From: a virus
Lineage: Duplodnaviria; Caudoviricetes
DNA: 64,000 nt
Reading direction: 5' to 3' (one strand)
Virus record (IMG/VR): IMGVR_UViG_3300010885_080481
Program-made: the position numbers and the translations under genes
Notes under the pieces: model-generated
The model's database searches: none
Told to the model about the DNA's origin: nothing
The model's input: only the letters and a program-made list of their open reading frames with translations
Part shown: positions 1,142 to 56,490 of the stretch, piece by piece
How positions within the stretch are numbered: position 1 is the stretch's first letter
How the letters are laid out: the number at the start of each line of letters is the position of its first letter

Positions 1142-1161
1142 TTGTAACAGTTGTTAGAGAT

Positions 1162-1323: not shown

Positions 1324-1343
1324 TGTCGTAAAAAGAAATTGCG

Positions 1344-6519: not shown

Positions 6520-6538
6520 TTGAGAAGGATGTAGCTAG

Positions 6539-10936: not shown

Positions 10937-10959
10937 TATTTTCATCTTAAGAGGAAAGC

Positions 10960-11241: not shown

Positions 11242-11250
11242 AGGTAGGTT

Positions 11251-15771: not shown

Positions 15772-15789
15772 TATTAAAGGGCAAATAAA

Positions 15790-16086: not shown

Positions 16087-16092
16087 GTCTGA

Positions 16093-30182: not shown

Positions 30183-30183
30183 T

Positions 30184-33867: not shown

Positions 33868-34293
33868 ATGTCGCCTGAAAAAGAAAAAATTCTTTGTGAA
33901 AAGTATCCAAAGATTTTTAAATCTAGTCAACACAATGATGAACCTATCGAGATGTGGGGGTTCGAATGTAATGATGGTTGGTTTGAATTGATTGATACTT
34001 TGTGTAACAAAATCCAATCTCATGTAGATTGGAGATCTAAAAATCTTCAAGACGCAAGTGAGCTTGAGGATTTGCAGGTCAAGGCTGAACAAGTGAAAGA
34101 GAAATTTGGAGGTCTTCGTTTCTATGTATCACGTGGAGATGATATCATTGATGCATTCATTTCTTTCGCAGAGACAATGTCTATGAAGATCTGCGAAACC
34201 TGCGGCCAACCAGGACAACAAAAAAATGTAAGTGGCTGGATACATACTGCCTGTGATCCATGCTTTGAGAAAAGAGCGTGGAGAACAACATGA
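33868..34293 (+). CDS. Conserved phage hypothetical protein (QVKEKFGGLRFY family)
   Basis: GFECNDGW, QVKEKFGGLRFY and CETCG...TAC..C. Start moved to 33868. Confidence 0.7.
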   Translation: MSPEKEKILCEKYPKIFKSSQHNDEPIEMWGFECNDGWFELIDTLCNKIQSHVDWRSKNLQDASELEDLQVKAEQVKEKFGGLRFYVSRGDDIIDAFISFAETMSMKICETCGQPGQQKNVSGWIHTACDPCFEKRAWRTT

Positions 34294-35084: not shown

Positions 35085-35918
35085 ATGAAATTAGCATGGG
35101 CAACGGACATTCATTTAGACTGCGTAGGCGATGTACCAGAGAAGGTTTCGTTGCTTGCAAAATCTTCAAATAATTGTGAGTCTTTGATCATAACAGGGGA
35201 TATTACAATTGCCCCATTGTTGATACAACACCTACAACTTATAGAAAGTATCCTACAAAAACCTTTTTATTTCGTGCTTGGAAACCACGATTATTATTTT
35301 TCAGACATTATCTCGACACGTCAGAAGGTTGCCCAGGCATGTAATTCGTTGTCTTTTGCAAGATATCTTGCTACAGTTCCTTACATCAGAATAAAACGAG
35401 ATGTAGCTTTGGTAGGACATGATGGGTGGTATGATGCGTTGAATGGTAACTACAATAACAACGAAATTTTAATGAATGATTGGATCAGGATTTCTGACTT
35501 TTCAGTTGCAATGAGAACTGTCTCTAATTCTCAGGTCATCAATAAAGAAGTCATAGTTCGAATAGCAAGAGCCATTTGTCAAGCTTCGGTGAACCACGTT
35601 GCGAATGGGATCAAATCAGCGATTCGTGATAAAAATTCTTGCATAGTCGTAGCTACTCACGTTCCTCCATTCAAAGAATCTTACAACAGCGAAAAATACA
35701 ATAATATAAATTTCTCTTCAGTTTTACCTTGGTATACATCTAAAACTATGGGAGATATGTTAATGAAAGCTGCTAAGACGTATCCTCACGTAAAGTTCGT
35801 TGTTCTTTCTGGACATGCTCATAGTCATTACGATGAGGATCTTCTTAACAATTTAAACGTTCGAGTAGGAAAATCTGCATATGGATCGCCACAGATTGCG
35901 GGGTACGTCGATATTTAA
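35085..35918 (+). CDS. Calcineurin-like metallophosphoesterase
   Basis: TDIH, TGDI, GNHD, THVP and GHAH. Confidence 0.88.
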   Translation: MKLAWATDIHLDCVGDVPEKVSLLAKSSNNCESLIITGDITIAPLLIQHLQLIESILQKPFYFVLGNHDYYFSDIISTRQKVAQACNSLSFARYLATVPYIRIKRDVALVGHDGWYDALNGNYNNNEILMNDWIRISDFSVAMRTVSNSQVINKEVIVRIARAICQASVNHVANGIKSAIRDKNSCIVVATHVPPFKESYNSEKYNNINFSSVLPWYTSKTMGDMLMKAAKTYPHVKFVVLSGHAHSHYDEDLLNNLNVRVGKSAYGSPQIAGYVDI

Positions 35919-35937
35919 AATTCAGAGAGGTTCATAC

Positions 35938-36468
35938 ATGAAGAGAGCGCTTCTCTTGAATTTTAACGGTGAACCATTACAGTTCATAGACGGCCCACGA
36001 GCCATTAAACTGATGTTGAAAGGAAGAGCAGAGGTCGCTTCTGGTATGACAGGAGAACCTTGCTTTTGGGATGAAACAATTGCTACACCTTCATCCAAAT
36101 TTAGACTGCCAGCAGTTCTTCGATTGAAGTACTACGTCAACAAAAGGACGTATAAAAAGCCTGCTCGATTTCAAAAGAAAGTTTTATTCAACAGAGACGC
36201 GTGGAAATGTCAGTATTGTGGTGTCGAATTAAATTATTCTGCTATTACAGTTGATCACGTTTTTCCAGCTTCTCGTGGTGGCAAGACTACATGGAAAAAT
36301 TGCGTAGCTGCTTGTAAACTATGTAATAACAGCAAAGGTAATAAAACCCCTGAGGAAGCAGGTATGAGGTTATTAAAGCAGCCTCATGAACCGACCACGC
36401 TACATTACTGGGATCTAAATAAAACTTCTACGTGGTATGACGATTGGAATTTATTTGTAATAGCATAA
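35938..36468 (+). CDS. HNH endonuclease
   Basis: RD.WKCQYCG, TVDHVFPASRGG, W.NCVAAC..CN..KG. Confidence 0.88.
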   Translation: MKRALLLNFNGEPLQFIDGPRAIKLMLKGRAEVASGMTGEPCFWDETIATPSSKFRLPAVLRLKYYVNKRTYKKPARFQKKVLFNRDAWKCQYCGVELNYSAITVDHVFPASRGGKTTWKNCVAACKLCNNSKGNKTPEEAGMRLLKQPHEPTTLHYWDLNKTSTWYDDWNLFVIA

Positions 36469-38665: not shown

Positions 38666-38722
38666 TAATTTATCATAATTTTTTTTGATAAATTTACTTG
38701 CTCTTTGTGTATAGTCACATAT

Positions 38723-39793
38723 ATGCAAAGAGCAGTTTGTTTTGATGATGTTCTTTTAATCCCTCAATTCTCAGATATCGAGAGCAGATCTCATGTAGAT
38801 CTTTCAGTGACTGGATTTGAATCATCTTTTGCAAGGTTAACTGACAAACATAGAGATTTAAAATGTCCTATAGTCGGTTCTCCTATGGACACCGTGATGG
38901 GTCCTCAATCTGCTGCAACCATAGCCAAATTTGGAGGGTTTGGGATTTTACATCGTTACTGCTCGATTGAAAATTCCAAACAGATGTTTTTTGAAACAAT
39001 AAGCTTGATGTCTGATGAACTTGATTCATCTCAACACCTGGTTCAAAATGTTATGGTCGCTATCGGAGCAACAAACGACTATTTAGAACGTGCCACTGAA
39101 CTTTACAATGCTGGTTGCAGAGCTTTTTGCGTAGACGTAGCTCATGGTCATCACATAAACGTAAAAAATGCTTTAAGCAAGTTAAGATCCAAGTTCGGAA
39201 AAAAAATTCATGTCATGACGGGAAATGTCGCGACACTAGACGCCTTTAATGATCTTGCTGATTGGGGTTCTGATTCTATCAGAACAGGGGTAGGAGGAGG
39301 ATCCATGTGTACGACTAGAATTCGTACAGGTCATGGCGTACCCACTTTACAATCAATAATCGATTGTTCAAAGTCTGATAGAGATGTTTATATCGTTGCA
39401 GACGGTGGAATAAGAAACAGTGGTGACGCTGTCAAAGCTCTTGCAGCTGGTGCTGATATGGTCATGTTAGGATCTATTCTCGCCGGTCATGATGAATCGC
39501 CTGGAACTATCATCTTAAAAGATCATCAGCGTTTTAAGAAATTTCGTGGCATGGCTTCAAGAGAAGCGCAGCTTGAATGGCGTGGCAAGGTATCAGTCTC
39601 TGAAGGTGAATCTACCTTTGTTCCTTATAAGGGTTCTCTAAGTGATACGTTGACTGATCTTTTAGAAGGAATTCGTTCAGGTTTATCTTATTCAGGAGCA
39701 AAAACGATTAGAGAATTGCGTGCTAAGTCCAAATTTACCGGAGTGACATCCAATGGGGTCCTAGAAAATGGACCCCACGGAAAAAAGTATTGA
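38723..39793 (+). CDS. guaB: IMP dehydrogenase / GMP reductase family (no CBS domains)
   Basis: FDDVLLIP, SPMDTV, DVAHGH, GNVAT, GVGGGSMCTTR, ADGGI, FRGMAS and GIRSGLSY.GA. GuaC is not excluded. Confidence 0.8.
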   Translation: MQRAVCFDDVLLIPQFSDIESRSHVDLSVTGFESSFARLTDKHRDLKCPIVGSPMDTVMGPQSAATIAKFGGFGILHRYCSIENSKQMFFETISLMSDELDSSQHLVQNVMVAIGATNDYLERATELYNAGCRAFCVDVAHGHHINVKNALSKLRSKFGKKIHVMTGNVATLDAFNDLADWGSDSIRTGVGGGSMCTTRIRTGHGVPTLQSIIDCSKSDRDVYIVADGGIRNSGDAVKALAAGADMVMLGSILAGHDESPGTIILKDHQRFKKFRGMASREAQLEWRGKVSVSEGESTFVPYKGSLSDTLTDLLEGIRSGLSYSGAKTIRELRAKSKFTGVTSNGVLENGPHGKKY

Positions 39794-40267: not shown

Positions 40268-40320
40268 GTGTTTAAATATGCGGTTGCATGAGATCATAAT
40301 TTGGAAAAGAAAATTTGCGG

Positions 40321-40349
40321 TGCAAATTAAAACTTCCATCGAATATAAT
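40321..40349 (+). promoter_or_regulatory. Sigma70-like promoter of dnaE
   Basis: TGCAAA, 17 nt, TATAAT. Confidence 0.55.
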
Positions 40350-40362
40350 GGGTGATAGACAA

Positions 40363-43300
40363 ATGAGTTCAAACTTACCTACAAGATTCGTTGGCCTTCA
40401 TGCGCACTCGACGTTTTCGCAATACGACGGCCTTGACTATCCTCAAGAACATATTGATTATGTTCTAGAGAATGGTATGGATGCGTGGTCATTGACGGAT
40501 CACGGTAACATGAATGGCTTCTGTCATGCGTTTCTTCACACTGAGAAGATGAAAAAGTCAGGAAAGAATTTTAAGTTCATTCCTGGCTGCGAGATGTACG
40601 TCCATCCTGATCTTGGACAGTGGAAAAAAGATCTTGAAGCTTCCAAAGCGAAACCTGCCAAGGACGAGTCGATCATCACTCCCATCACCGCAGTTGTTGA
40701 CGGTGATGATGAAACGACCGATGTAGGTACTGATGAAGCTGCTCTAACGGTTGAGAATGAGGATGAGACGAAGTCAGGTAAGTACAATGACCCTGTGAAG
40801 AGACGACATCATCTCGTCGTCTTGCCAAAAACGTCAACTGGTCTTCAACGGCTGTTTCATTTGGTGTCTAGAGGCTATCTAGAGGGATTTTATCGTTTTC
40901 CCCGCATTGACTATTCGATGTTGAAAGAGGCGGCAAAGGGAGATCATCTCATGATCAGTACCGCTTGTCTCGGCGGGCCGTTGGCATTTGATGCCTTCGA
41001 ACAGCTACAAAAAGTCCCGTTTGAAGAACTGAAGCACCAACTTCTCAACGACAAGTCGTTGCTCGATCGAATCATTGCGACAATGAGCAACACCTACGAT
41101 AAGCTCGTTGATGCAGTCGGTAGAAATAACGTGTGCCTTGAGCTTCAGTTCAATAAACTACCAGCTCAGCATCTTGTCAATCGAGCACTTATCGAATTTG
41201 CTAAGAGAAATTCTCTTCGTGACAGGGTCGTAGTGACATGTGATTCTCATTATTCTCGTCCAGAGAATTGGAAAGAACGGGAGATTTATAAGAAGTTAGG
41301 TTGGCTCAACTATCAAAACTTTGATCCCAGCCTACTTCCAAAATCCAAAGATGATTTGAAGTGTGAGTTGTATCCGAAAAATGCCAAGCAGGTTTGGGAG
41401 TCGTATCTCACAACGACGGAAGGCATGGATTTCTATGACGATGAATTCGTCAAAGATGCGATCGAGCGTACTCACGATATCGTCCACAATGAGCTCGGTG
41501 ACATTCAACCTGACAAGACCATGAAGCTTCCTTCATACGTGATTCCTGAAGGATCCACTGAAGATAAGGCTCTGGTGTCTGCTTGCAAAAACGGGTTGAA
41601 GTGGCGTGGTCTGGATGATAGATCTGATTATATCGAAAGGATCAGGTATGAGCTTGGCATCATCAAGGGGAAGAAGTTCTCTCGATACTTCTTGACGATG
41701 AAAGCAATCATGGACATCGCCCGCGAGCACATGCTGATCGGCCCAGGCCGCGGATCGGCCGCCGGTTCACTTGTGGCCTATGTTCTTGGAATTACGAATT
41801 TGGATCCAATTGAATATGATCTTTCTTTTGAAAGATTCTTGAATCCATCTAGAACAGGTGCCCCTGACATCGATTCTGACATCTCCGACCGTGATCTTCT
41901 CATCGAGCTTCTCAGAAAGAATCTCGGTGACAGGAACGTCATTCCCATCTCAAACTACAATACCTTTAGACTTAAGAGTCTCATCAAGGACATCGCTCGA
42001 TTCTACAGTATTCCGTTCGAGGAAGTCAATGCAGCACTTGCACCCGTCGAGGATGACGTAAAGAAAGAAGTCTTTAAACCAGGTACTGATAAGAATCTTT
42101 TCGTTCTTACATACGAAGATGCAATCAAGTACTCCAAATCTCTACAAGATTTCATTGCGGCGCACCCTGAGGTCGCTGAACCCATCGAGATCCTGTTTAA
42201 GCAGAATCGTTCTCTAGGTCGACATGCAGGTGGAGTCATCGTTTCAGAAGACATTGCTGAGAGAATGCCGTTGATCTTGGCTCGCGGTGAGGCCCAGACG
42301 CCTTGGGTGGAAGGCATGAACTATAAACACCTTGAAGAGTTTGGGTGGATCAAGTTCGACTTGCTGGGTCTCGAAACTCTACGAATCATTGAGCGTTGCA
42401 TCGGTTTGATCCTTGAACGTCGTGAAGGTGTGAAAAACCCAGATTTTAATCAGATCAAGGCTTGGTTTGATAAACACATGGACCCTAAGAACATTGATTT
42501 GAATGATCAAAAGGTCTATGAATATGTGTATCATGAAGGGAGATTTGCAGGCATCTTCCAATTAACGCAGACCGGTGCCCAACGGTTATTCACGAAGGCA
42601 AAACCTCGTAGCATCATCGATATTGCGACCTTGACTTCAATCTATCGTCCTGGTCCCCTCGCCGCAAACGTTGATAAACTCTACATTGATGCCAAGAACA
42701 ATCCTGATAAGATTGATTATCAACATCCATTGATCAAGAAGGTCCTCGAATCAACGTACGGATGCATCATCTTCCAGGAGCAAACGATGCGTCTCTGCTC
42801 CGTGGTTGCAGGCTTTCCTGAGGCCGAGACAGACACCATCCGTCGTAACATCATGAAGCGTAGCGCATCGAAGAAAGACGATGCGGCCGCGGATGCTCGT
42901 AAGGCAAAGGAAGAGTTTATCACCGGAGCAGTTAGGAATGGCGTCAATGAGAAGGTGGCCTCTGAGCTTTATGACAAGATTCTCTTCTTCTCAGGGTATG
43001 GCTTCAACGCATCTCACGCTGTGTCTTATGCCATTGATTCTTATTACTGTGCTTGGCTCTTGACGTATTACGAAGAGGAATGGCTTTGCGCATACCTTGA
43101 GTCCATGTCGGGAAACGATGAGAAACGCGCTAAGGCTTTCTCTGAGGTAAAAGCTCTAGGTTATAAGATCGTTCCCGTTGACGTCAACTACGCTACAAAG
43201 AGTTGGACCATCTTAGAAGGTAAGCGGTTCATGCCAAGCTTCTTGTCTTGTAAGGGCATCGGAGAGGCAGCCATTGATGAAATCATCGAGAATCGACCAT

Positions 43301-43935
43301 ACAAGAACGTTGAGGAAATGTTGTGGAACGATGACGGATCCTGGAAACACTCTAAATTTAACAAACGAGCTTTTGAAGGTCTCATCTCCATTCGAGCGTT
43401 TGATTCTCTTGATTGTGTTGGAGAAGGAAAAACATTTAATAGCTATAAACAGATGCGTCATATCTTGATCGATAGAGGTAATGATATCAAGAAGACCACT
43501 AAGAAAAATCCCACTCTTGGCATGGAGAACTTTAGAAATATCTTGATAGAGACGGACGACATAGATGAGTGGACTCGAGGTGAGCTCGTTGATAACAGTG
43601 TGAAGTACTTGGGATCTTTCAACTCTAACATCCTCGTTTCTCAAGACCTAATCGAAAAGCTTGAGTCAAAAGGAGTCAAATCTATCGACTTCATAGAGCA
43701 AACAGACGTTTATTGGTTTATCATCTCAGACACTAAGGAAAAAAAGACGAAGAACGGAAAACCATACTTGCTTCTCACGGCAATGGGACTTGGAGGACAA
43801 ACTCGTCGAATCTTCTGTTGGGGGTGGGATGGTCACACTGAACTGCCAAAGTATTCCACCTGCATCGCAGAGATCACTGTTGACAACTACGGTAATAAAA
43901 CTTTCATGAGTAAGGTTAAGGTAATCGATGAATAA
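40363..43935 (+). CDS. dnaE: DNA polymerase III alpha subunit (family C) with PHP domain
   Basis: PHP motifs LHAHS, TDHG, GCE and CDSH; GPGRGSAAGS, PDIDSD, RHAGGV, KFDLLGL, YRPGP, GYGFNASHA and a C-terminal OB fold. No intein. Confidence 0.95.
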   Translation: MSSNLPTRFVGLHAHSTFSQYDGLDYPQEHIDYVLENGMDAWSLTDHGNMNGFCHAFLHTEKMKKSGKNFKFIPGCEMYVHPDLGQWKKDLEASKAKPAKDESIITPITAVVDGDDETTDVGTDEAALTVENEDETKSGKYNDPVKRRHHLVVLPKTSTGLQRLFHLVSRGYLEGFYRFPRIDYSMLKEAAKGDHLMISTACLGGPLAFDAFEQLQKVPFEELKHQLLNDKSLLDRIIATMSNTYDKLVDAVGRNNVCLELQFNKLPAQHLVNRALIEFAKRNSLRDRVVVTCDSHYSRPENWKEREIYKKLGWLNYQNFDPSLLPKSKDDLKCELYPKNAKQVWESYLTTTEGMDFYDDEFVKDAIERTHDIVHNELGDIQPDKTMKLPSYVIPEGSTEDKALVSACKNGLKWRGLDDRSDYIERIRYELGIIKGKKFSRYFLTMKAIMDIAREHMLIGPGRGSAAGSLVAYVLGITNLDPIEYDLSFERFLNPSRTGAPDIDSDISDRDLLIELLRKNLGDRNVIPISNYNTFRLKSLIKDIARFYSIPFEEVNAALAPVEDDVKKEVFKPGTDKNLFVLTYEDAIKYSKSLQDFIAAHPEVAEPIEILFKQNRSLGRHAGGVIVSEDIAERMPLILARGEAQTPWVEGMNYKHLEEFGWIKFDLLGLETLRIIERCIGLILERREGVKNPDFNQIKAWFDKHMDPKNIDLNDQKVYEYVYHEGRFAGIFQLTQTGAQRLFTKAKPRSIIDIATLTSIYRPGPLAANVDKLYIDAKNNPDKIDYQHPLIKKVLESTYGCIIFQEQTMRLCSVVAGFPEAETDTIRRNIMKRSASKKDDAAADARKAKEEFITGAVRNGVNEKVASELYDKILFFSGYGFNASHAVSYAIDSYYCAWLLTYYEEEWLCAYLESMSGNDEKRAKAFSEVKALGYKIVPVDVNYATKSWTILEGKRFMPSFLSCKGIGEAAIDEIIENRPYKNVEEMLWNDDGSWKHSKFNKRAFEGLISIRAFDSLDCVGEGKTFNSYKQMRHILIDRGNDIKKTTKKNPTLGMENFRNILIETDDIDEWTRGELVDNSVKYLGSFNSNILVSQDLIEKLESKGVKSIDFIEQTDVYWFIISDTKEKKTKNGKPYLLLTAMGLGGQTRRIFCWGWDGHTELPKYSTCIAEITVDNYGNKTFMSKVKVIDE

Positions 43936-44461
43936 CATGCATACTGTCGTAATCTTCGAAGGATGTGATAAGGTCGGCAAGACTGAGATGGCTAGAGAGC
44001 TTTCAAGACGGTTAGGCATTCCTTATTTTAAAAATAAATCGGAATGGAGGGCATTTAGCTCAGATCCAGACTACTTCGTGAAAGCTCTTCGTTATGGAGA
44101 TCCTTACTTCTACACATTTCTTCGAGACACAAAAACTTCAACAATTCTAGACAGGTCTTATCCTTCCGAATGGGTATATTCTAGGGTATACGGAAGAAAG
44201 ACTGATCATGATGCATTGTCACACATTGACTTTTTGGCTGCGTCGTTTGGCGTGAAGATCGTCATTCCGTATAGAACCTCATATTCAGGAATGAAGGATG
44301 ATATTCACGACATAGGTGAATATCATCTACAAAAATTGTCTGATATGTATGAAGAATTTGCAAAGTGGACTAAATGTGATGTATTACGTTTTTGTATTGA
44401 TTCTGAAAACCTAGAATGGGAAATGGAGACCATTCGTAAATTCTTGAAAAAGGAGGCATGA
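43928..44461 (+). CDS. Thymidylate kinase-like dNMP kinase 2 (candidate modified-dCMP kinase)
   Basis: VIFEGCDKVGKT, ILDRSYPSEWVY; overlaps the dnaE stop. Confidence 0.72.
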   Translation: MNNMHTVVIFEGCDKVGKTEMARELSRRLGIPYFKNKSEWRAFSSDPDYFVKALRYGDPYFYTFLRDTKTSTILDRSYPSEWVYSRVYGRKTDHDALSHIDFLAASFGVKIVIPYRTSYSGMKDDIHDIGEYHLQKLSDMYEEFAKWTKCDVLRFCIDSENLEWEMETIRKFLKKEA

Positions 44462-45486
44462 TGCGCATCGGAATTAGTTATTGGGGTTTTTGTGAGCCTC
44501 TTGGGACATTAGGAGAGGCAAAAACGCCTGACGGTCATCGGTACGGACGTCCAGTATTCATGGATGCAGCCCATACTGCAGGACATAGAGTCTACTCGTT
44601 GCAATCGCGTCGCGAGGCAGTTCCATATAACAACGTAGAATACGATGAAGGATTCCCGGATATAGATGTTCTATTCGTTGAGTGGAGATGGCCTACTTAC
44701 AAAAATTCTGGAGATAAAAAAGTAGAACCAGATCTAGACAGACAAAATGCACTTCTAAATCACTACCACGGCAAGATTCCCGTGGTTATATGGGATTGTG
44801 ATTATAAGGTTACCCCTGAAGATGAAGAAAAGTGGCCGTTGGCTATCATTGCAGATCCTGCGTTTGATCCTAGAAACCTGACTAGAAAACGAGAACGTCT
44901 CATGTTTTGGTCGGATTGGAAATCTATTTTCAATCCTGCTGAAACGTCTTTTGAATACGGATACGTCGGAAACAACTATGAGCGTCCCGAAGCTTTCAAA
45001 AGATTCTACTCTTCCCCTGCATCAGAACTAAGAAATATCGGCATTCAAACTTCCATTTATGGAAATTGGTTAGAAAAATCTCCTGAACGTGAGAGTCCTT
45101 CTATTTTGATTGCGACGTGTCCGAATGTGGCATTTGGAACTCGATTGAACTTTTTTGAATCGATGAAACGATTGAATTCATTCATATGTACGACCCATAT
45201 AACAAAACCAGAATATGCCCGCCGCGGTTTTGTTTCTCCCAGGTATCTAGAAAACGTCGCGGTCGGAACACCTTCATTGGTACCATCGGAATTTTTGATG
45301 TCAAATTTGTTAGGACAAGATTGGATAGTAACAACGTCCAAACATGTCGTTGAACTGGTATCTCACATCAGTAATTTATCTTATCAAGATAGAGTTTCTC
45401 TGGTAGAAGAGCAAAGAAAAAATTTGCAAAATAAAAATGTATTTTCCGTTAACAACGTAATAAGTTTTCTTGAAAGTCTTGTATGA
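44458..45486 (+). CDS. GT-B glycosyltransferase resembling T4 DNA beta-glucosyltransferase
   Basis: By-eye alignment to T4 BGT C-domain as recalled: YGYVGNNYER, IYGNW, HITKPEYARRGFVSPRYLE..V..SLV..EF and R..LVEEQ. Confidence 0.65.
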   Translation: MMRIGISYWGFCEPLGTLGEAKTPDGHRYGRPVFMDAAHTAGHRVYSLQSRREAVPYNNVEYDEGFPDIDVLFVEWRWPTYKNSGDKKVEPDLDRQNALLNHYHGKIPVVIWDCDYKVTPEDEEKWPLAIIADPAFDPRNLTRKRERLMFWSDWKSIFNPAETSFEYGYVGNNYERPEAFKRFYSSPASELRNIGIQTSIYGNWLEKSPERESPSILIATCPNVAFGTRLNFFESMKRLNSFICTTHITKPEYARRGFVSPRYLENVAVGTPSLVPSEFLMSNLLGQDWIVTTSKHVVELVSHISNLSYQDRVSLVEEQRKNLQNKNVFSVNNVISFLESLV

Positions 45487-45494
45487 GGAATAAA

Positions 45495-46484
45495 ATGAAA
45501 GTATTGATCACTGGTGTTGCAGGTCTTTTAGGTGCGAATTTTTCTCGTCATCTTTTGTCCAAAGGACATGACGTCGTTGGCATCGATGATTTGAGTGGAG
45601 GATACGCAGATTCCGTACCAGAGGCTGTAAAGTTTTATCAAGTTGATCTTGCTGAAAGGTTGCAAGTCGAAGAAGTTTTTAAGACCGAAAAACCTGATTT
45701 CGTGTTTCACTTCGCTGCCTATGCTGCTGAAGGCCTCAGTCCGTTCATTAGGAATTACAACTACACGAACAACGTATTGGCCTCGGCAAACGTCATCAAC
45801 GCCTGCGTCAATCATGACGTGAAAAAAGTCATCTTCACTTCTTCAATGGCGGTCTACGGTGAGGGTCGTCCTCCTTTTAGTGAAGACCAGCTTCCGACTC
45901 CTGAAGATCCTTACGGAATCGCCAAGTATGCAGTTGAGATGGACCTGAAGTTAGCTCACAGTATGTTCGGTCTACGTTACAGTATCGTTCGCCCTCACAA
46001 TGTGGTCGGCATCTATCAAAATATTTGGGACAGGTATCGAAACGTTATTGGAATTTGGATTCGTAAAGCTCTCATTGGTGAGCCTCTTACGATTTTCGGT
46101 GATGGGTCGCAAAAAAGGGCTTTTTCTGATATCAAGTTCTATATGGACCCATTCGAAAAATTGATGTCTTCTTTTGACGGAGAAACATTCAATATTGGAG
46201 CAGATAAAGATTTTACGATCAACGAAGCCTGCGATTTGGTTATCGATGTTGCAGCTGAACTTGGTATCAAAGCGACCAAGGTTCATCTAGAAAAACGTAA
46301 TGAGGTTCACACCGCCTATTGCGACCACGCAAAAGCTCATAAGCTTTTAGATTTTAAAGATGAAACGAATCTTCGTGATACAATCAAGCAGATGTTTGTC
46401 TGGGCTCAGCAGCAACCAAATAGACAAATTAAAAATATGGATTATGAGATTGAAAAGAACATGTATTCTTTTTGGAAGAAATGA
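45495..46484 (+). CDS. NAD-dependent NDP-sugar epimerase/dehydratase 1 (extended SDR)
   Basis: GVAGLLG, FTSS and YGIAK. Start at 45495 has a GAGG SD. Confidence 0.9.
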   Translation: MKVLITGVAGLLGANFSRHLLSKGHDVVGIDDLSGGYADSVPEAVKFYQVDLAERLQVEEVFKTEKPDFVFHFAAYAAEGLSPFIRNYNYTNNVLASANVINACVNHDVKKVIFTSSMAVYGEGRPPFSEDQLPTPEDPYGIAKYAVEMDLKLAHSMFGLRYSIVRPHNVVGIYQNIWDRYRNVIGIWIRKALIGEPLTIFGDGSQKRAFSDIKFYMDPFEKLMSSFDGETFNIGADKDFTINEACDLVIDVAAELGIKATKVHLEKRNEVHTAYCDHAKAHKLLDFKDETNLRDTIKQMFVWAQQQPNRQIKNMDYEIEKNMYSFWKK

Positions 46485-47269
46485 CTATGACTTTTCCTGA
46501 AAAATTAGCTGATAGAGAAAAATACATTTTTGATCAAGTCTTAGCTGGCAATTTTGATGCTGAATGGTTTCCTCTTGAATTTTCTTCTGGTGGAAGAACC
46601 ATCAAGTTCAACGTGATGAACGATGCATTGAAAATCGATGGTGTGAGAGTCAATGTATCTGCAGAGCTTCAACAAAAATTAGCCGATGTATTTAACGCGT
46701 CTTTGTTGACAACACACATTGCTGATTTGATGTTCATCAATGCCACACATCGAGTAGAACCATGTCCCATGTTGATATCTTCGACAGTCGATTCTATGAT
46801 TAAACATAGTCGAATGGTCGATGGAAAAATGGGGATGAAGGTGACGGGGCTAGTGGCTTCTCCTGGAAAGCATTGGATTTTAGATAAGAAATTAGATGCA
46901 AATCCTAGGAAAGCTTGCAATTATGGTTGGCACTTTGTCGGTGCGAACTATAAAGGTATAAAAGGCTATCCAACAGGATCTAAACAAAATAAGTTGAATG
47001 GAATGAATATCTCAGTAATTCAGCCAAATGCAACTGCTCACGATATGAAACATTCTGACTATTCTCAGATTTGCCAGCTAGTTTCTCAAGCTTGTTGGAT
47101 TGATGGTGTTATACACCGTTTATCTGATGTTCTGCAAGATCCAATGAAATGCGATCTTGCTACCGCAAATGGTCCTTTAAGCTTCGTTAGGCAACCGGGA
47201 ACGTCTCAACTTATTGGAACTTCAGTTATGTTTCCTGTAAAAATTACTTCGCAAGGAGGAATCACATGA
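46481..47269 (+). CDS. Hypothetical protein with YGWH and HxxxHxDYSQ motifs
   Basis: ATGA-coupled to the epimerase; function unassigned. Confidence 0.65.
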   Translation: MTMTFPEKLADREKYIFDQVLAGNFDAEWFPLEFSSGGRTIKFNVMNDALKIDGVRVNVSAELQQKLADVFNASLLTTHIADLMFINATHRVEPCPMLISSTVDSMIKHSRMVDGKMGMKVTGLVASPGKHWILDKKLDANPRKACNYGWHFVGANYKGIKGYPTGSKQNKLNGMNISVIQPNATAHDMKHSDYSQICQLVSQACWIDGVIHRLSDVLQDPMKCDLATANGPLSFVRQPGTSQLIGTSVMFPVKITSQGGIT

Positions 47270-47454
47270 CGTATGAATATGAATGTAAAGCCTGCAATCA
47301 TCAGTTTGAAGCGCAACAATCAATTAAAGATCCGCCATTGACAAATTGCCCTCGTTGCAAGACTGACTTTTTACGAAGGCTTATAAGCAAGTCAACATTC
47401 GTTTTGAAGGGTTCTGGTTGGGCTGCTGATAACTACTCTTCAAAATCTTCTTAG
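47266..47454 (+). CDS. FmdB-family zinc ribbon protein
   Basis: YEYECKACNHQFE..QSIKDPPLT.CPRC...LRRLIS...F.LKGSGW...NY. Confidence 0.88.
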   Translation: MTYEYECKACNHQFEAQQSIKDPPLTNCPRCKTDFLRRLISKSTFVLKGSGWAADNYSSKSS

Positions 47455-48179
47455 TAAGTAGGCAGTGAGTGTTGTCTCAATGGACAATCACTTTTGTTGC
47501 GAGAAGATCTAGAAGCAGGATGACCAGGTTTTAACAGGTTGTGTAAGTCTTCTCCTTCTTTACTTGCAAAGACTGATTTGACTTCGCCTGTTTCACTATT
47601 AAAAATGATAGTATAACCGCCTCTAGTCATATCTAGGGGTTTTTTTAACGTGTTCATGTAGTCGAACTTACCCGCTTTTGACATTTCTTTATCAAACCAA
47701 GCTTCAAGCACGAAGTTAGAGACAGAAACCGTCACACCGTTAACATCAATTTCGTAGGAATCTCCCTGGACAGGGTCACAAAGCTCTAGGGCCACGAAGG
47801 TATGATCCCCTCTGTTGGACCACAAGTTAATGTAAGGATTGTAGAAAGTCTCTAATATTTCATGCGATAGGACAGTAGAAACAGCATGCGTTCCTTTTAA
47901 TACCGTTCCACCGTGTTTTAGTAGCGGGTCCGTAAAAACTCTACACCAAACTCTTCCGTCAGGATCTTGCGTATGGTATCCAAGAGCACCAGCAACATCT
48001 GGAGAGTCAATAAGAACCACGGGGAATCCATCATTACCACCTACCTTTATCTCCCACGGCACCCTTTCCAGGAGCGGGGCAGCATGTTGATTCATTTGTA
48101 TCTTGCAGGCTTCAACCATTAAGTTTAAGTCTGCTTCTGAAACGTTAGTCGACTTATTGATGACATTAAACGTTCTCAT
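47451..48179 (-). CDS. Zincin-like metallopeptidase (HExxE)
   Basis: ALGYH, VLSHEILE, ELCDPV and VSNFV...WF. Lies opposite to the cluster, with ATATTTA upstream. Confidence 0.6.
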   Translation of the reverse strand: MRTFNVINKSTNVSEADLNLMVEACKIQMNQHAAPLLERVPWEIKVGGNDGFPVVLIDSPDVAGALGYHTQDPDGRVWCRVFTDPLLKHGGTVLKGTHAVSTVLSHEILETFYNPYINLWSNRGDHTFVALELCDPVQGDSYEIDVNGVTVSVSNFVLEAWFDKEMSKAGKFDYMNTLKKPLDMTRGGYTIIFNSETGEVKSVFASKEGEDLHNLLKPGHPASRSSRNKSDCPLRQHSLPTY

Positions 48180-48182
48180 AAT

Positions 48183-48212
48183 TGTAAATATTCGTCACAA
48201 CAGTTGTATAAT
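48183..48212 (+). promoter_or_regulatory. Divergent promoter region
   Basis: On +, TGTAAA, 18 nt, TATAAT toward epimerase 2. On -, ATATTTA (48185-48191) toward the peptidase. Confidence 0.45.
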
Positions 48213-48230
48213 TGAAAAGGTATAAATCAT

Positions 48231-49199
48231 ATGAGAATTTTAGTAACTGGGGGAGCAGGCTTCATCGGCAGCAATTTAGCTCGTAAATGTGTTGAAGAAG
48301 AACATTACGTGGATGTTGTAGACAATTTGTTGAATGGTCACATCTCTTTTGTTCCTCATCAACTGAGAACAAATAATCTGTATATTTGTAATTTTGATTC
48401 TGCTCACATTTTGAATAAAATTAGAAATAAAGAATACGATGTTGTTGTTCATCTGGCTGCTATTCCTAGAGTGAGTTATTCTGTTGAACACCCATTAGAG
48501 ACTAATGAAACCAATGTGTCAGCAACGCTTAGATTGATAGACGCTTGCAAAGGCAATATAAAACGTTTCGTTTTTGCTTCTTCATCTTCTGTGTACGGAG
48601 GAGCTGAAAATTTGCCAACCAAAGAAAAAGAACTGAAAAATCCTAAATCTCCCTATGCATTTCAAAAATCGATTATAGAAGACTATTTGAAGATCTACTA
48701 CGACAATTTTGGATTAGACTCAGCAAGTCTACGTTTCTTTAACGTTTTTGGTCCTAATCAGTTAGGCAACTCTCCTTATTCCACTGCGGTTTCTGCATGG
48801 GTAAATGCGATTTTGAGAGGGAAATCCATGCGTTCCGATGGGGATGGGTCTCAATCAAGAGACATGTGTTACGTAGACAACGTCGTAGACGTGTGCTTAC
48901 GCGCAGCAATGTCTGATAAGATTATTGCGGCTGAAACGCTAAACGTAGCATGTGGTGATAGAACGACGAATAAAGAAATTTTGCAATATTTGTTGAAAAA
49001 ATTCCCAGATTCCAAATACCATGATGCACCATGGCGTCCAGGAGATGTCATGCACACACAAGCAGACGTCAGTAGAACAAAAGAAGTATTAGGGTACGTT
49101 CCTCTTGTGCATTTTTGGGAAGGATTGGAAAAGACCATTCAGTGGTACCAAGATAATTGGGAATTAATTCTATCACTGGATGATCAAGGAAATATATGA
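48231..49199 (+). CDS. NAD-dependent NDP-sugar epimerase 2 (UDP-Glc/GlcNAc 4-epimerase-like SDR)
   Basis: GGAGFIG, HLAA, ASSSSVYG, PKSPYAFQK, LRFFNVFGP, RDMCYV and RPGDV.H. Confidence 0.9.
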   Translation: MRILVTGGAGFIGSNLARKCVEEEHYVDVVDNLLNGHISFVPHQLRTNNLYICNFDSAHILNKIRNKEYDVVVHLAAIPRVSYSVEHPLETNETNVSATLRLIDACKGNIKRFVFASSSSVYGGAENLPTKEKELKNPKSPYAFQKSIIEDYLKIYYDNFGLDSASLRFFNVFGPNQLGNSPYSTAVSAWVNAILRGKSMRSDGDGSQSRDMCYVDNVVDVCLRAAMSDKIIAAETLNVACGDRTTNKEILQYLLKKFPDSKYHDAPWRPGDVMHTQADVSRTKEVLGYVPLVHFWEGLEKTIQWYQDNWELILSLDDQGNI

Positions 49200-50179
49200 A
49201 GAATTTTTCTAGCTTTACTGAAGCCTATCGAAACTTGCTTCTTGATGTCTATGAACATCCTGAGTTTTCTTCTGCTCCCCGTGGTTATAAAATTAGAGAA
49301 AAATTGGGCGTGAGTTTCAGCATTACGAACCCAAGAGATCGTTTGCCCTTTCTCACCGGTCGTGATTTTAGCATCTCTTATCTTATTGCAGAATCGTTGT
49401 GGTATTTGTCAGGCGATGATTCCACTGAATGGATTTCTAACTACTCTTCTTTTTGGAAAAGCATTTCTGATGATGGAGTAACTGCTAACAGCGCCTATGG
49501 AGCTCGTATATTCAAACCTCACCCTAGAGTAGCAGGGGAATTAGACCCCGCTTGGACGCAATGGAGGTACGTCGTTGATGAGCTGATTGCAGACCAAGAC
49601 TCCAGAAGAGCAGTCATACATATCAGATCGCCGCAGGATTCTATCCTGGCAAAGAAGGACGTGCCTTGCACGTTGAGCTTGCAGTTTTTTCTTCGTAACG
49701 ATTTGGTTCATATGGTCGTTTCTATGCGTTCATCTGATCTAATTCTAGGATTAGCGTACGACGTCCCTGCTTTTACTTTGTTCCAAGAATTACTAGCTTC
49801 TGAATTATCTAACAGGCTAAATAGACCAATAGGGTTGGGGACGTATACACATGTCAGTAATTCTCTTCATATATACGAGAGACATTTCAAGATGGTAGAA
49901 GAAATCTTGTCTTCACCTATCAACTCTTCAATAGAAATGCCTGCTTTACCTAACAAGGAAGTACCGATCTCTAATATGATGAGTTTTGAAAAAGCCTGCA
50001 GAAATGCTGGTTCGTACCAAGAGATCGATAGGTTACTATCGAATAACGTTATTGAAGATTATTGGAAGGATTGGTTGCTTATTCTTGCATCTCATAGATC
50101 GTTTAAATTTTCTGCTGAACATCAGAAAAAAATCATGAACCAAGTCAGCTTCGAGGGATATAAGTTTTTTAACAAATAA
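49196..50179 (+). CDS. ThyA-fold enzyme, predicted dCMP hydroxymethylase or other dCMP C5-modifying enzyme
   Basis: AE.LWY, DSRRA, PC (C158), MRSSD and SLHIYERH. GLAYD places Asp189 where dUMP enzymes have Asn (E. coli N177). Confidence 0.75.
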   Translation: MKNFSSFTEAYRNLLLDVYEHPEFSSAPRGYKIREKLGVSFSITNPRDRLPFLTGRDFSISYLIAESLWYLSGDDSTEWISNYSSFWKSISDDGVTANSAYGARIFKPHPRVAGELDPAWTQWRYVVDELIADQDSRRAVIHIRSPQDSILAKKDVPCTLSLQFFLRNDLVHMVVSMRSSDLILGLAYDVPAFTLFQELLASELSNRLNRPIGLGTYTHVSNSLHIYERHFKMVEEILSSPINSSIEMPALPNKEVPISNMMSFEKACRNAGSYQEIDRLLSNNVIEDYWKDWLLILASHRSFKFSAEHQKKIMNQVSFEGYKFFNK

Positions 50180-50187
50180 GGAATTTT

Positions 50188-50754
50188 ATGCTGCTAAATC
50201 CTCAATTTATTTTATATTGCGGTCCTATGTTCAGCTCAAAAACGACTGGGCTTCTATCTTCAATTGATCGTTTTAGATACCAAAACAAAAAGGTCATTGT
50301 TTTTAAACCAAAGCTTGACGATAGGTACGTTGAAGATTTTGTTTGCACTCATAGTGGGTGGAAAGTGGCAGCAACTTGTATCAAAGAAGGAAGCGACATC
50401 TTAGAAAAGTTATCAGAGATGGAAGAAAATCCGCACGTCGTTGCCGTCGACGAAGCTTTTATGATACCTGGAATTGCAAAAGTTCTTATTTGGTTATACA
50501 GAAGCGGATATTCAGTTGTCGTTTCATCTTTGGATTTATCAGCCACTGGTAAACCTTTTGACGAGATTGAAAAAATGTTGCCTTGGACTACGCACGTAGA
50601 AAAGAGAAGTGCAGTGTGTACAGTCTGTAGCAGAGACGCTTATTACACTTACAAGAAGCAAATGGGCGGAGATGAGATTGAAGTTGGTGGGTCTGAACTT
50701 TACGAGCCTAGATGCTTAAAATGTCATCCATTGATCTTTGATCCTTCAAGGTGA
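50188..50754 (+). CDS. tdk: Thymidine kinase
   Basis: GPMFSSKT, D.RY, VDEAF, C.VC, IEVGG.E.YEPRCLKC. Confidence 0.9.
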   Translation: MLLNPQFILYCGPMFSSKTTGLLSSIDRFRYQNKKVIVFKPKLDDRYVEDFVCTHSGWKVAATCIKEGSDILEKLSEMEENPHVVAVDEAFMIPGIAKVLIWLYRSGYSVVVSSLDLSATGKPFDEIEKMLPWTTHVEKRSAVCTVCSRDAYYTYKKQMGGDEIEVGGSELYEPRCLKCHPLIFDPSR

Positions 50755-50758
50755 TTTT

Positions 50759-51226
50759 ATGGATTTTAATAGACATTTGCAAAAGCTTGAAGTTTTTATG
50801 AAAATGTGTAAAGAACTTTCAACGCTTTCGTATGATGAAAAGTATAAGGTGTCTTCTATTATTATCACTTCTGATTATAGAGAAGTTTGTGCAATAGGAT
50901 ACAACGGAAGCTATAAAGGTGGTCCTAATCAAAGAAGTTCTTTAGAACATGGAGGGTCTGGATTTTTACATGCAGAAGAAAATGCCTTGTTCCACCTCTG
51001 CAAACCATACGAACTTAGGAACAATTTGCTAATGTTGTGCACACACAAACCTTGTTCTATGTGTGCGAAAAGAATAGTAAATAGTGGAATACAAAAAATA
51101 GTTTTTGATATTGATTATGTTGATCAAGAGGCGTCTGCTGACCAAATATTCCAAGTCAGCGGTACGAAATGTATAAAGTATCAAGACTTAATTTCTTTTC
51201 CTCAAATCTTGTTTGCGTCTAACTAA
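50759..51226 (+). CDS. dCMP deaminase
   Basis: GYNG, HAEENAL and PCSMCAKRIVNSGI. Confidence 0.85.
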   Translation: MDFNRHLQKLEVFMKMCKELSTLSYDEKYKVSSIIITSDYREVCAIGYNGSYKGGPNQRSSLEHGGSGFLHAEENALFHLCKPYELRNNLLMLCTHKPCSMCAKRIVNSGIQKIVFDIDYVDQEASADQIFQVSGTKCIKYQDLISFPQILFASN

Positions 51227-51260: not shown

Positions 51261-51554
51261 ATGAAGAAATTATCAGAAAAAGAAATTATCCGTTTAATGC
51301 GAGAAGAATGGATTAAAAAAGTCAATGGATTGTTGTCTGAAAAAGCAGAAAAAAATTCAGACAACTTAAAAATGCTGGCAAGAGTGAACGGAAAAGAAAA
51401 GTTAGTGATCTCTCCAGATCTAAAAGTCGAAAAGGACAATTTTCTTTATACTGTGGTCAGCGTAAATGAAAAAGAAGTTACTTTAAGAAAACCTTCTGGC
51501 GAAGAATTCACTATCACGTCAAAAGAGTTTGAAGAAGAATTTGAAAGAGAATGA
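51261..51554 (+). CDS. Hypothetical protein with leader KEIIRLMREE
   Basis: 97 aa with a beta-rich C-terminal half. Confidence 0.65.
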   Translation: MKKLSEKEIIRLMREEWIKKVNGLLSEKAEKNSDNLKMLARVNGKEKLVISPDLKVEKDNFLYTVVSVNEKEVTLRKPSGEEFTITSKEFEEEFERE

Positions 51555-51567
51555 TGGAGTTTGCATT

Positions 51568-52308
51568 ATGAACAAAAACAATAATGATAAAATTGAATTA
51601 GATAACATCTTAAAAAGCGTGGTCAAGAACTCCATCGCCAAGCACGCTCCTGTTTCGCAACTTCAAGAAGTTGCTGATGATTCAAATTCTTTAAAGGAAG
51701 CATACGTAGCTGAACCTAAAGTTTTTAAACAGGTAACAGAGTTTGTTACCCAAAAAACCAAAAGTGCTCATTATGATCTTTACAAGGGTTATACTGAATC
51801 TTTGACTAAAGTATCTGCCAAGCTAGATTCTGTCAATAGACCAGATGCAAATCCTAGAAGTTCTGAATACGCTTCATTGAAAAAAGATGAAGTTTATAAT
51901 CTAAATGCAACATGGTTACATGAATTATATTTTGCTAACTGTTTTGACCCACATTCAGAAATTACTATGGATTCCATGTCTTATCTCAGGCTTGAGAGAG
52001 ACTTCGGCACATTCGAAGATTGGCAACGAGATTTTATTGCCTGTGCATCAGCTGCAGGAGTTGGTTGGGCTGTTTGTGGATATCACATGTTCTTACAACG
52101 GTATGTTAACACGTTCGTCGGTCTGCACGATCGGAATGTGATGCTAGGGTTGTATCCAATCATGGTTGTAGACATGTGGGAACATGCTCATAGAGATTAT
52201 CTTAATGATAAAAAGAGCTACATAGTTTCTCAAATGAGAGAAATTAATTGGAATGTAGTAGAAGAGAGAGTAGTTAAAGCAGAACAGATAGCGCAGGCGT
52301 TGAAATGA
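51568..52308 (+). CDS. Fe/Mn superoxide dismutase-like protein with N-terminal extension
   Basis: HYDLYKGY, LHELYFAN, GWAV and DMWEHAH. Confidence 0.75.
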   Translation: MNKNNNDKIELDNILKSVVKNSIAKHAPVSQLQEVADDSNSLKEAYVAEPKVFKQVTEFVTQKTKSAHYDLYKGYTESLTKVSAKLDSVNRPDANPRSSEYASLKKDEVYNLNATWLHELYFANCFDPHSEITMDSMSYLRLERDFGTFEDWQRDFIACASAAGVGWAVCGYHMFLQRYVNTFVGLHDRNVMLGLYPIMVVDMWEHAHRDYLNDKKSYIVSQMREINWNVVEERVVKAEQIAQALK

Positions 52309-55728: not shown

Positions 55729-56490
55729 ATGTTCGTACAATCTGCTCCTGTTGTTGCAGCTGTTCAGTTCGATCCAAAGATTCTTGAAGTTCATGAAAAT
55801 TTGGCGACAGCTCGTTCTCTTGCTTTTGAAGCTGCAGCAAAAGGAGCAGCTGTCGTTGTTTTACCTGAACTGTGTATAAGCGGATATACTTTAAGGGACT
55901 ATAAAGAAGCCGCTGAATGTTCTCAAACAAAGAGCGGGTATCAGACGGAAGCTTTTCTTACAATCGCAAAAAATTGTAATTGTCATATTATTTTTGGGTA
56001 TGTTGAATTGTTAGAAGGAAAGCTTTATAATTCTGCTGCTGTTGTAGGCCCTTCTGGATTAGTAGCTAATTACCAAAAACACAATTTGTGGGCTAATGAT
56101 TACTTGTGGGCTGAACCTTCAGAGTCTGTAAATCCTGTTGTCACAACTCGCGCAGGTCGATTAGGAGCTTTGATTTGTAGAGATTCTCTTAACAATTATA
56201 GAGAATCATATAAATTCTACAAGCCGGATTTCCGATTTTATAGGCAAGGTTCAGTAGATACGATAGCATTATTAACGAACTGGTCAGGTCAAATTACCCA
56301 CCCAGATAATTCTTGGGTAGAGCTTGCAGAACAGACTAACTCTAACGTTATTGTTTCTAGCAGAGTTGGTAAAGAGAGAAATTTGAAGTTTAATGGAGGA
56401 TCTACGATAATAGATAAAAAGTTGAATGTTTGGACTAACGGATCTTCTTTCACCGAAGCCGCTGTCGTTGGAGGAACGGTTATTCTATGA
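55729..56490 (+). CDS. Carbon-nitrogen hydrolase (nitrilase/amidase family)
   Basis: Glu-Lys-Cys triad in LPEL, YQKHNL and LICRD. Confidence 0.88.
   Translation: MFVQSAPVVAAVQFDPKILEVHENLATARSLAFEAAAKGAAVVVLPELCISGYTLRDYKEAAECSQTKSGYQTEAFLTIAKNCNCHIIFGYVELLEGKLYNSAAVVGPSGLVANYQKHNLWANDYLWAEPSESVNPVVTTRAGRLGALICRDSLNNYRESYKFYKPDFRFYRQGSVDTIALLTNWSGQITHPDNSWVELAEQTNSNVIVSSRVGKERNLKFNGGSTIIDKKLNVWTNGSSFTEAAVVGGTVIL

Follow-up and report, generated by a model that had tools for sequence, protein, structure and literature searches.

A predicted pathway for glycosylated 5-hydroxymethylcytosine in the genome of an uncultured freshwater jumbo phage

The window analysed here, a stretch of 64,000 nucleotides from IMG/VR virus record IMGVR_UViG_3300010885_080481, contains a gene cluster beside a family C DNA polymerase gene (dnaE) that we examined as a candidate system for making glycosylated 5-hydroxymethylcytosine (5hmC). 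The original prediction had listed eight genes at this locus, the first four of them overlapping: dnaE, a nucleotide kinase, a glycosyltransferase resembling the T4 DNA beta-glucosyltransferase (BGT), two epimerases of the short-chain dehydrogenase/reductase (SDR) superfamily, a ThyA-fold enzyme, thymidine kinase (TK) and dCMP deaminase. All eight were confirmed, coordinates and overlaps included, by their open reading frames (ORFs) and, for DnaE, the two SDRs, the ThyA-fold enzyme (Thymidylat_synt), TK and dCMP deaminase, by matches in Pfam, PHROG and NCBIfam (Table 1). The list had overlooked three ORFs between SDR1 and SDR2, which encode a 265-residue protein, a zinc-ribbon protein and a 242-residue protein. 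The dnaE and kinase genes overlap by 8 nucleotides, the kinase and transferase genes by 4 (ATGA), and the transferase and SDR1 genes also by 4, and an AAGGAGG ribosome-binding site lies directly upstream of the kinase–transferase overlap.

Table 1. Genes of the cluster, other candidate pathway genes and further features of the window (aa, amino acids).
Feature	Position	Strand	Family matches and remarks
DnaE-type family C DNA polymerase	40315-43935	+	PHP, DNA_pol3_alpha, finger and HHH_6 domains
P-loop nucleotide kinase, candidate 5-hydroxymethyl-dCMP kinase	43928-44461	+	phrog_761 E 6e-12; RB69 gp45/DLP3 gp78 family
GT-B glycosyltransferase, remote BGT homologue	44458-45486	+	profile–profile and structure match
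SDR1, GalE-like NDP-hexose 4-epimerase	45483-46484	+	PF01370 E 4.7e-49
265-aa protein without family	46472-47269	+	no Pfam, PHROG or NCBIfam match; not conserved core
62-aa Zn-ribbon protein	47266-47454	+	PF09723 E 2e-14; close relatives only, not core
242-aa protein without family	47451-48179	-	no family match; close relatives only, not core
SDR2, WbgU/WbpP/TviC-like UDP-hexose(NAc/uronate) 4-epimerase	48231-49199	+	PF01370 E 9e-51
ThyA-fold enzyme, predicted dCMP 5-hydroxymethylase, long MilA-like, 327 aa	49196-50179	+	PF00303 E 1.7e-25
Thymidine kinase (TK)	50188-50754	+	PF00265 E 1.8e-39
dCMP deaminase	50738-51226	+	PF00383 E 2.6e-17; phrog_174 E 1e-28
ThyX flavin-dependent thymidylate synthase	30142-30843	+	PF02511 E 3.9e-35
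Canonical thymidylate kinase (Tmk)	31370-31963	+	PF02223 E 6e-14, above cut-off
All-alpha NTP pyrophosphohydrolase, candidate dCTPase (gp56-like), 129 aa	32332-32721	+	PF08761 E 7e-6, above cut-off; phrog_12184 E 6e-15
Trimeric dUTPase	24378-24863	+	PF00692 E 1.3e-35
Tail-sheath paralogues (two, 344 and 999 aa)	107-4343
Three giant ORFs (1465, 1506 and 1175 aa)	6539-19620		no PHROG match at E 1e-5
Ferredoxin-like gene	30840-31382		phrog_3704
N6/N4 DNA methyltransferase	34278-35060		PF01555
HNH endonuclease	35881-36468
IMPDH/GMP-reductase family gene	38705-39793		PF00478 E 1e-93
Fe/Mn superoxide dismutase, C-terminal domain alone	51529-52308		PF02777
Nitrilase-family/carbon–nitrogen hydrolase	55729-56490		PF00795
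Isocitrate lyase	61426-62664		PF00463 E 5.7e-100

Among solved structures, the ThyA-fold enzyme was most similar, over its full length, to the CMP hydroxymethylase MilA (5jnh/5b6d, E 1.7e-44), with true thymidylate synthases (E ~1e-11) and T4 gp42 (E 5e-10) scoring lower. The protein was aligned with nine orthologues from related contigs and with T4 gp42, RB69 gp48, RB69 td and DLP3 gp80. The catalytic cysteine is present (Cys158, aligned with the T4, RB69 and thymidylate synthase cysteines; C146 in E. coli), and Glu66, within a conserved AE..W motif, occupies the position of the catalytic glutamate. Asp189 falls in the column of E. coli ThyA Asn177, in agreement with the original description of an enzyme of the Asp type, and all nine relatives also have Asp there. 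Asp155 falls in the column of Leu143, three residues N-terminal to the catalytic cysteine as in T4 and MilA; Ser179 falls in the column of Ser167, and Arg137 and Arg138 in those of Arg126 and Arg127. The column of Asp169 holds Asp181, retained in the nine relatives, and Asn in RB69 gp48 and DLP3 gp80. All of these signature residues are common to the nine relatives examined; a more distant homologue, from contig L051, has Asn at the Leu143 position.

Published criteria allow these residues to be read. N177D confers cytosine specificity, an acidic residue at position 143 goes with a hydroxymethyl product, and D169N is the hallmark of flavin-dependent enzymes that make 5-hydroxy-dCMP, as in RB69, DLP3 and RL38J1 (PMC13326640). 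MilA owes its preference for ribonucleotides to Ala and Lys at the Ser167 and Arg126 positions, where Ser and Arg go with deoxyribose (PMC5175136). The D169N replacement was found neither in the window enzyme nor in the nine relatives, and the ribonucleotide signature of MilA and BcmA (Ala at Ser167, Lys at Arg126) is likewise absent, Ser179 and Arg137 standing in those places. By these criteria the window enzyme and its nine relatives read as dCMP hydroxymethylases, not as hydroxylases or CMP enzymes, and the predicted product is 5-hydroxymethyl-dCMP (hm-dCMP), as had originally been proposed by analogy with T4.

As a single sequence the transferase gave only a sub-threshold match to PF13524, and 264 close homologues were found in metagenomes. 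A narrow profile of the family (A1) matched nothing real in the PDB and reached a probability of 16.6% against the single BGT sequence, and BLASTP returned nothing; a broader profile, built from an exhaustive search of representatives, was needed. That search gathered 376 clusters at 50% identity, and a profile of 71 diverse members (A3) had T4 BGT as its sole match in the PDB (E 1.1e-13). When A3 was compared with a profile of the BGT family (A2) using hhalign, the two aligned over 319 columns covering both GT-B domains (probability 99.1%, E 7.8e-19). In this alignment D115, R176, Y253, R262 and E265 of the transferase fall on D100, R195, Y261, R269 and E272 of BGT, positions at which both families show little or no variation. 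We take D100 of BGT to be the catalytic base and Arg191, Arg195, Tyr261, Arg269 and Glu272 to bind UDP; the title of one PDB entry, 'BGT-D100A mutant in complex with UDP-glucose', agrees with these roles. The T4 BGT family is CAZy family GT63. A structure model of the transferase was a high-confidence GT-B fold with BGT as its top structural match, and a structure search of BFVD returned generic GT-B proteins only. Neither transferase profile showed homology by hhalign to DLP3 gp79, arabinosyltransferase 1 of the 5-hydroxycytosine (5hoC) cassette. On profile evidence the transferase is thus a remote homologue of T4 BGT, which bears out the BGT-like assignment by profile and structure methods only. 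Its predicted acceptor is 5hmC in duplex DNA, a candidate role for which the evidence is the conserved proximity of its gene to those for ThyA homologue and kinase.

The kinase has a Tmk-like P-loop. A profile of twelve orthologues was compared by hhalign with candidate relatives, and matched RB69 gp45 over 141 columns (probability 97.5%, E 5.8e-12) and DLP3 gp78 over 135 columns (96.3%, E 1.6e-9). The match to the Tmk encoded in the window itself covered 29 columns, the P-loop only (93.4%, E 2.5e-7), and that to T4 gp1 was not significant (2.1%, E 0.022, 20 columns). By homology, therefore, the kinase is of the RB69 gp45/DLP3 gp78 family and not of the T4 gp1 family. Both gp45 and gp78 have been described as 'nucleotide kinases', and in the 5-hydroxycytosine cassettes their genes adjoin those for the ThyA homologue and first glycosyltransferase (PMC13326640). 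With ThyX and a canonical Tmk encoded elsewhere in the window, dTMP can be made without either the ThyA homologue or the cluster kinase, so that the ThyA homologue would be free to act on cytosine; the kinase would be an extra, specialised one. Its position and the separate Tmk suggest phosphorylation of hm-dCMP as a candidate role. The dedicated nucleotide kinase of the original prediction is supported by this homology and by translational coupling to the transferase.

Both SDRs are, judged by their best solved relatives, of the extended-SDR UDP-hexose 4-epimerase types. SDR1 was closest to a Thermotoga UDP-glucose 4-epimerase (4zrm, E 1e-40); it has the GxxGxxG motif, a serine of the SSxxxYG type and YxxxK, and on inspection lacks the D-E pair of dehydratases. 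SDR2 was closest to 6dnt (E 1e-58), WbgU (E 3e-52) and WbpP (E 6e-45), with TviC as its top NCBIfam match, below cut-off; it has the motifs SSSSVYG and YAFQK and again no dehydratase Asp-Glu pair. Since no NCBIfam equivalog cut-off was reached, the substrates of SDR1 and SDR2 are left unassigned.

Kinase, transferase and ThyA homologue form a trio whose genes are adjacent in all 18 related loci with enough flanking sequence, including loci at 43-50% identity in which gene order is shuffled; the co-occurrence of these genes in relatives, which the original prediction had suggested examining, thus holds down to that level. Of the SDRs, it is the SDR2 type that distant relatives most frequently retain next to the trio, and an SDR2-type epimerase, adjoining the trio or close to it, was found within ±10 kb of the transferase in 14 of 14 loci with enough downstream flank. 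The sugar genes are otherwise variable. The clade of the window phage and locus L001 have a GalE-like and a WbpP-like epimerase. The cassettes of L003 and L021 run SDR, Glf, kinase, transferase, SDR, ThyA homologue, and those of L023 and L024 run ThyA homologue, Glf, transferase, kinase, SDR, so that Glf, a UDP-galactopyranose mutase, adjoins the kinase in L003 and lies between ThyA homologue and transferase in L023. In L022 a GFO/MocA oxidoreductase and a short-chain dehydrogenase precede transferase, kinase and ThyA homologue. Transferases of the broad family elsewhere occur with a ThyA homologue, a carbamoyltransferase and a methyltransferase, or with a GHMP kinase and a SIS isomerase. Sugar genes that vary around an unchanging trio are what one would expect of a DNA-glycosylation module under diversifying pressure, which argues that the epimerases serve the transferase. 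The transferred sugar is probably a hexose other than glucose; the two 4-epimerase-type SDRs, together with Glf or different sugar enzymes in the corresponding place in relatives, favour the phage-made, non-glucose sugar that had been proposed.

The linkage to the replicase is looser. DnaE adjoins the cassette in most relatives, and the distant 54-kb contig L051 carries kinase, transferase and ThyA homologue together with DnaE, DnaB and DnaG, but no DnaE was found within 10 kb in L003 and L021. Of the claimed coupling to DnaE, what stands is a recurrent adjacency, not a demonstrated functional coupling. Within the two closest relatives (L010 and L011), DnaE, the kinase and the 265-residue, zinc-ribbon and 242-residue proteins are 92-98% identical to those of the window, whereas protein identity is only 68-75% for the transferase, SDR2, ThyA homologue and dCMP deaminase; evolution is thus faster in the modification enzymes than in the proteins encoded around them. 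We considered that the transferase, SDR2 and ThyA homologue might have been replaced by recombination and rejected this, because nucleotide identity to the closest relatives drops only from ~82% to ~70% and faster protein evolution is as likely an explanation.

The 265-residue ORF is restricted to relatives whose transferases are 66-75% identical. Its AF2 model (pLDDT 87) gave weak matches to C-type-lectin/FGE-like folds (Z <=7.6) and no Foldseek match; it was rejected as a second glycosyltransferase. Neither it nor the 242-residue ORF had an informative match in the Atlas.

Other genes of the window could complete a cytosine pathway. The sole T4 match of the small all-alpha NTP pyrophosphohydrolase was gp56 (E 2e-4) and its sole DLP3 match the dCTPase gp51 (E 2.5e-5); the gene is kept in five of five relatives, in one of which (L023) it lies ~1 kb upstream of DnaE, and on this similarity its product is tentatively a dCTPase. 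In four relatives, nothing exceeded the cut-off for the MazG family (PF03819). The window further encodes an HD-domain protein and a NUDIX hydrolase. Neither a C5-cytosine methyltransferase nor a TET-like dioxygenase was found among the cluster ORFs or the ~50 window ORFs scanned, the sole methylase being of the N6/N4 type. The window has an unbroken dUTPase gene; its counterpart in the two closest relatives matches in two halves ~1.3 kb apart (L032-L035, G001/G002), suggestive of an insertion, for instance of an intein or a homing endonuclease.

The window belongs to a large contig of myovirus type, from an uncultured freshwater jumbo phage. Besides DnaE, the window encodes tail sheath proteins, a baseplate hub, UvsX, DnaB, a gp32-like single-stranded DNA-binding protein and RNase H/FEN, and, for nucleotide metabolism, ribonucleotide reductase, ThyX, Tmk, dUTPase and a protein of the GMP reductase/IMPDH family. 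Close relatives in IMG/VR are contigs of 205-278 kb with a CheckV completeness of 59-84%, so that the phage genome probably exceeds 300 kb, and DNA of the cluster was found in freshwater and lake metagenomes from ~15 studies. No match was returned by megablast of the cluster against 50,697 phage records or by tblastn of the transferase and kinase against phage records, and the identity of DnaE to its counterparts in phage records did not exceed 30%; there is thus no cultured relative from which the chemistry can be borrowed. A scan for promoters and terminators gave no enrichment above shuffled sequence.

Several further genes were noted in passing. The IMPDH/GMP-reductase gene directly precedes DnaE and is conserved in the neighbourhood of the cluster in relatives (51-82% identity), standing between ThyA homologue and TK in L003 and L021. 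The N6/N4 methyltransferase, with an HNH endonuclease nearby, points to a second, independent DNA modification. Downstream of the cluster, the C-terminal domain of an Fe/Mn superoxide dismutase stands alone, as it does in most related loci examined. Isocitrate lyase is an unusual auxiliary metabolic gene in a phage. A nitrilase-family gene and a ferredoxin-like gene, the latter between ThyX and Tmk, were also found, as were two tail-sheath paralogues and, after the baseplate hub, three giant ORFs. Upstream of the cassette in the 228-kb relative L003, a 357-residue protein (6271-7344) has a weak tubulin/FtsZ match (E 3e-4, below cut-off) and could be a PhuZ-like phage tubulin.

From gene content, residue signatures, homologies and conserved linkage we infer, step by step, a T4-type pre-replicative hypermodification of cytosine, in which 5hmC would be glycosylated with a phage-supplied hexose that is probably not glucose. 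We regard this pathway as reasonably likely. That the phage makes glycosylated 5hmC of some kind is likewise fairly probable on the sequence evidence, and our confidence in the identity of the sugar is lower. In the proposed pathway the gp56-like pyrophosphohydrolase would convert dCTP to dCMP, which is the weakest step, and the MilA-like ThyA homologue would use methylene-tetrahydrofolate to convert dCMP to hm-dCMP. The gp45/gp78-type kinase would phosphorylate hm-dCMP, with host NDP kinase completing hm-dCTP, and the adjacent DnaE replicase would build hm-dCTP into DNA. The BGT-family GT-B enzyme would then transfer the sugar from a UDP-sugar to the 5-hydroxymethyl group of duplex DNA, in beta linkage if it inverts like BGT. 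The two 4-epimerase-type SDRs would supply the donor by turning host UDP-Glc, UDP-GlcNAc or a uronate into its 4-epimer; 4-epimerisation makes a galactose-configured sugar (Gal, GalNAc or GalA) more likely than glucose. ThyX, Tmk, TK, dCMP deaminase and dUTPase would meanwhile hold the supply of dTTP apart. As in T4, the benefit would likely be resistance to host restriction and CRISPR nucleases. A broader version, which we hold tentatively and put a little short of even, is that the trio is a portable chassis whose sugar genes are swapped: in this phage the product would be an undescribed galacto-configured hexose on 5hmC, and in relatives galactofuranosyl-5hmC, where the locus contains Glf, or further oxidised, carbamoylated or methylated sugars.

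Several points weigh against the proposed pathway. Support for modified DNA is wholly in silico. The rule that an acidic residue at position 143 distinguishes hydroxymethylation from methylation (L143D/E) is a correlation and does not amount to a proven determinant, and the substrate of the gp45-type kinases is itself putative even in RB69 and DLP3; a gp1-type dNMP kinase, for its part, was not found in the contigs of four relatives, which are incomplete. Similarity of the candidate dCTPase to gp56 is weak (E 2e-4) and covers only ~60 C-terminal residues, and without efficient removal of dCTP the replacement of cytosine could be partial. Arg191 of BGT is replaced by Asn172 in the transferase, so donor binding may differ from that of BGT. 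There is, moreover, one transferase for two epimerases, which leaves a role for one of them unexplained, and the epimerases could serve other glycans instead.

This last point leads to the alternative that the pathway operates as proposed but with plain glucose from host UDP-glucose, the epimerases feeding virion or host-surface glycans. The closest characterised relative of the transferase does use UDP-glucose, and a single transferase for two epimerases fits this view. However, the SDR1 gene shares 4 nucleotides with the end of the transferase gene, stop codon included, an SDR2-type epimerase accompanies the transferase in every locus that could be assessed (14/14), Glf lies inside the L023 and L003 cassettes, and phage 5hmC glycosyltransferases of TET-route clusters have been shown to need partner epimerases (bioRxiv 10.1101/2023.12.21.572611), and we therefore consider glucose improbable. 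The acceptor may also be questioned. If the ThyA homologue made 5-hydroxymethyl- or 5-methyl-dCMP while the GT-B enzyme and the epimerases served an acceptor other than DNA, such as protein, lipid-linked glycan or small molecule, no sugar would be added to the base; this is distinctly unlikely, given that a DNA-specific enzyme, BGT, is the sole solved relative at the level of sequence profiles and that the transferase stays beside the ThyA homologue and kinase through rearrangements and in distant lineages.

Two further alternatives concern the base itself. A glycosylated 5hoC of the RB69/DLP3/RL38J1 class, made by a flavin-dependent dCMP hydroxylase with the sugar attached directly at O5, would account for the shared cassette architecture (kinase, transferase, ThyA homologue) and kinase family, for Glf in relatives as in RL38J1, and for the ~29% identity to DLP3 gp80. 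It would not account for the Asp retained at position 169, as in T4 gp42 and true thymidylate synthases, or for a transferase without detectable homology to DLP3 gp79, and we think there is little chance that it is correct. That the closest solved relative is MilA, at full length and with its C-terminal extension, raises the question of whether the enzyme is a MilA-like CMP hydroxymethylase serving a nucleoside-antibiotic-like metabolite or RNA modification. This seems highly improbable: where MilA has its ribose determinants Ala176 and Lys133, the window enzyme has the Ser and Arg of deoxy-specific enzymes, the gene lies amid DNA-precursor and replication genes, and a MilB-type N-glycosidase was not among the matches of the scanned ORFs.

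If the proposed pathway is correct, T4-style glycosylated hydroxymethylcytosine reaches beyond the Straboviridae to an abundant lineage of jumbo phages, uncultured, from fresh and marine waters and with family C replicases, and the Pfam model of the BGT family covers only a small part of it, given the 376 clusters. New sugar chemistries on 5hmC would be expected, with uses as restriction- or CRISPR-resistant DNA and as 5hmC-labelling enzymes. The shared kinase family would link 5hmC and 5hoC systems and suggest modular exchange of base-modifying and sugar-transferring parts. If the trio is also a portable chassis, it would be a 5hmC counterpart, using the same kinase family, to the glycodiversity recently found on 5-hydroxycytosine.

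Among known systems, glucosyl-hydroxymethylcytosine of T4 shares with the window a ThyA-fold enzyme with the catalytic Cys, L143D, N177D and a retained Asp169, a BGT-family transferase, a gp56-like enzyme, dCMP deaminase and TK, and in T4 bgt lies directly beside gene 42. In contrast to T4, the predicted hydroxymethylase of the window is of the long, MilA-like form (327 versus 246 residues, ~28% identical), the kinase is of the gp45/gp78 type and not gp1, ThyX takes the place of td, and the replicase is of family C instead of family B. The two embedded 4-epimerases, which imply a donor other than UDP-glucose, and the lack of conservation of BGT Arg191 further separate the two. The 5hoC cassettes of RB69, DLP3 and Rhizobium phage RL38J1 resemble the window in their adjacent kinase, first glycosyltransferase and ThyA homologue, in the homology of the kinases and in phage-encoded NDP-sugar supply, with Glf in RL38J1 and in relatives of the window phage (PMC13326640). 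They differ in that the window ThyA homologue lacks D169N, predicting 5hmC instead of 5hoC, and in that the window has a BGT-family transferase and a sugar that would arise by 4-epimerisation, not by the arabinose-5-phosphate pathway.

The 'subclass II' 5hmC glycosyltransferases from metaviromes likewise combine a transferase with a sugar epimerase that supplies its donor, and yield Hex-, HexNAc- or HexA-5hmC (Pyle et al., bioRxiv 10.1101/2023.12.21.572611). Their 5hmC is formed after replication, by a C5-methyltransferase and a TET-like dioxygenase, whereas the route proposed here is pre-replicative and depends on the ThyA homologue and kinase. The same study reports that GT-B enzymes often neighbour thymidylate-synthase homologues, and a survey of jumbo phages describes specialised 5hmC enzymes of the thymidylate synthase family (PMC7824862). 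MilA, of mildiomycin biosynthesis (5jnh/5b6d), has the same C-terminal extension and Asp at both the L143 and N177 positions, but its Ala176 and Lys133 are Ser and Arg in the window enzyme, which predicts dCMP as substrate. Bacillus phage G carries, within 11 kb (gp313-gp329; JN638751.1, 228463-239452; our locus L037), genes for a DnaE-like polymerase (gp329), a protein annotated as alpha-glucosyltransferase (gp313), dCMP deaminase (gp317) and a MilA-like ThyA homologue (gp319) with 30% identity across 97% of the query, and may make a modified cytosine too; unlike the window, this 11-kb stretch has no gp45-type kinase or epimerase, going by the record annotation. A literature search found no paper that joins dCMP hydroxymethylase, UDP-glucose 4-epimerase and phage. 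The original suggestion that the combination had not been characterised was nevertheless too strong, being preceded by 5hmC glycosylation with a transferase and partner epimerase (bioRxiv 10.1101/2023.12.21.572611), by kinase–transferase–ThyA cassettes with phage-made NDP-sugars (PMC13326640) and by the gene set of phage G. The parts of the cluster thus have published precedents from 2023-2026, and the system is a new variation on an anti-restriction strategy already described, without being of a new kind itself.

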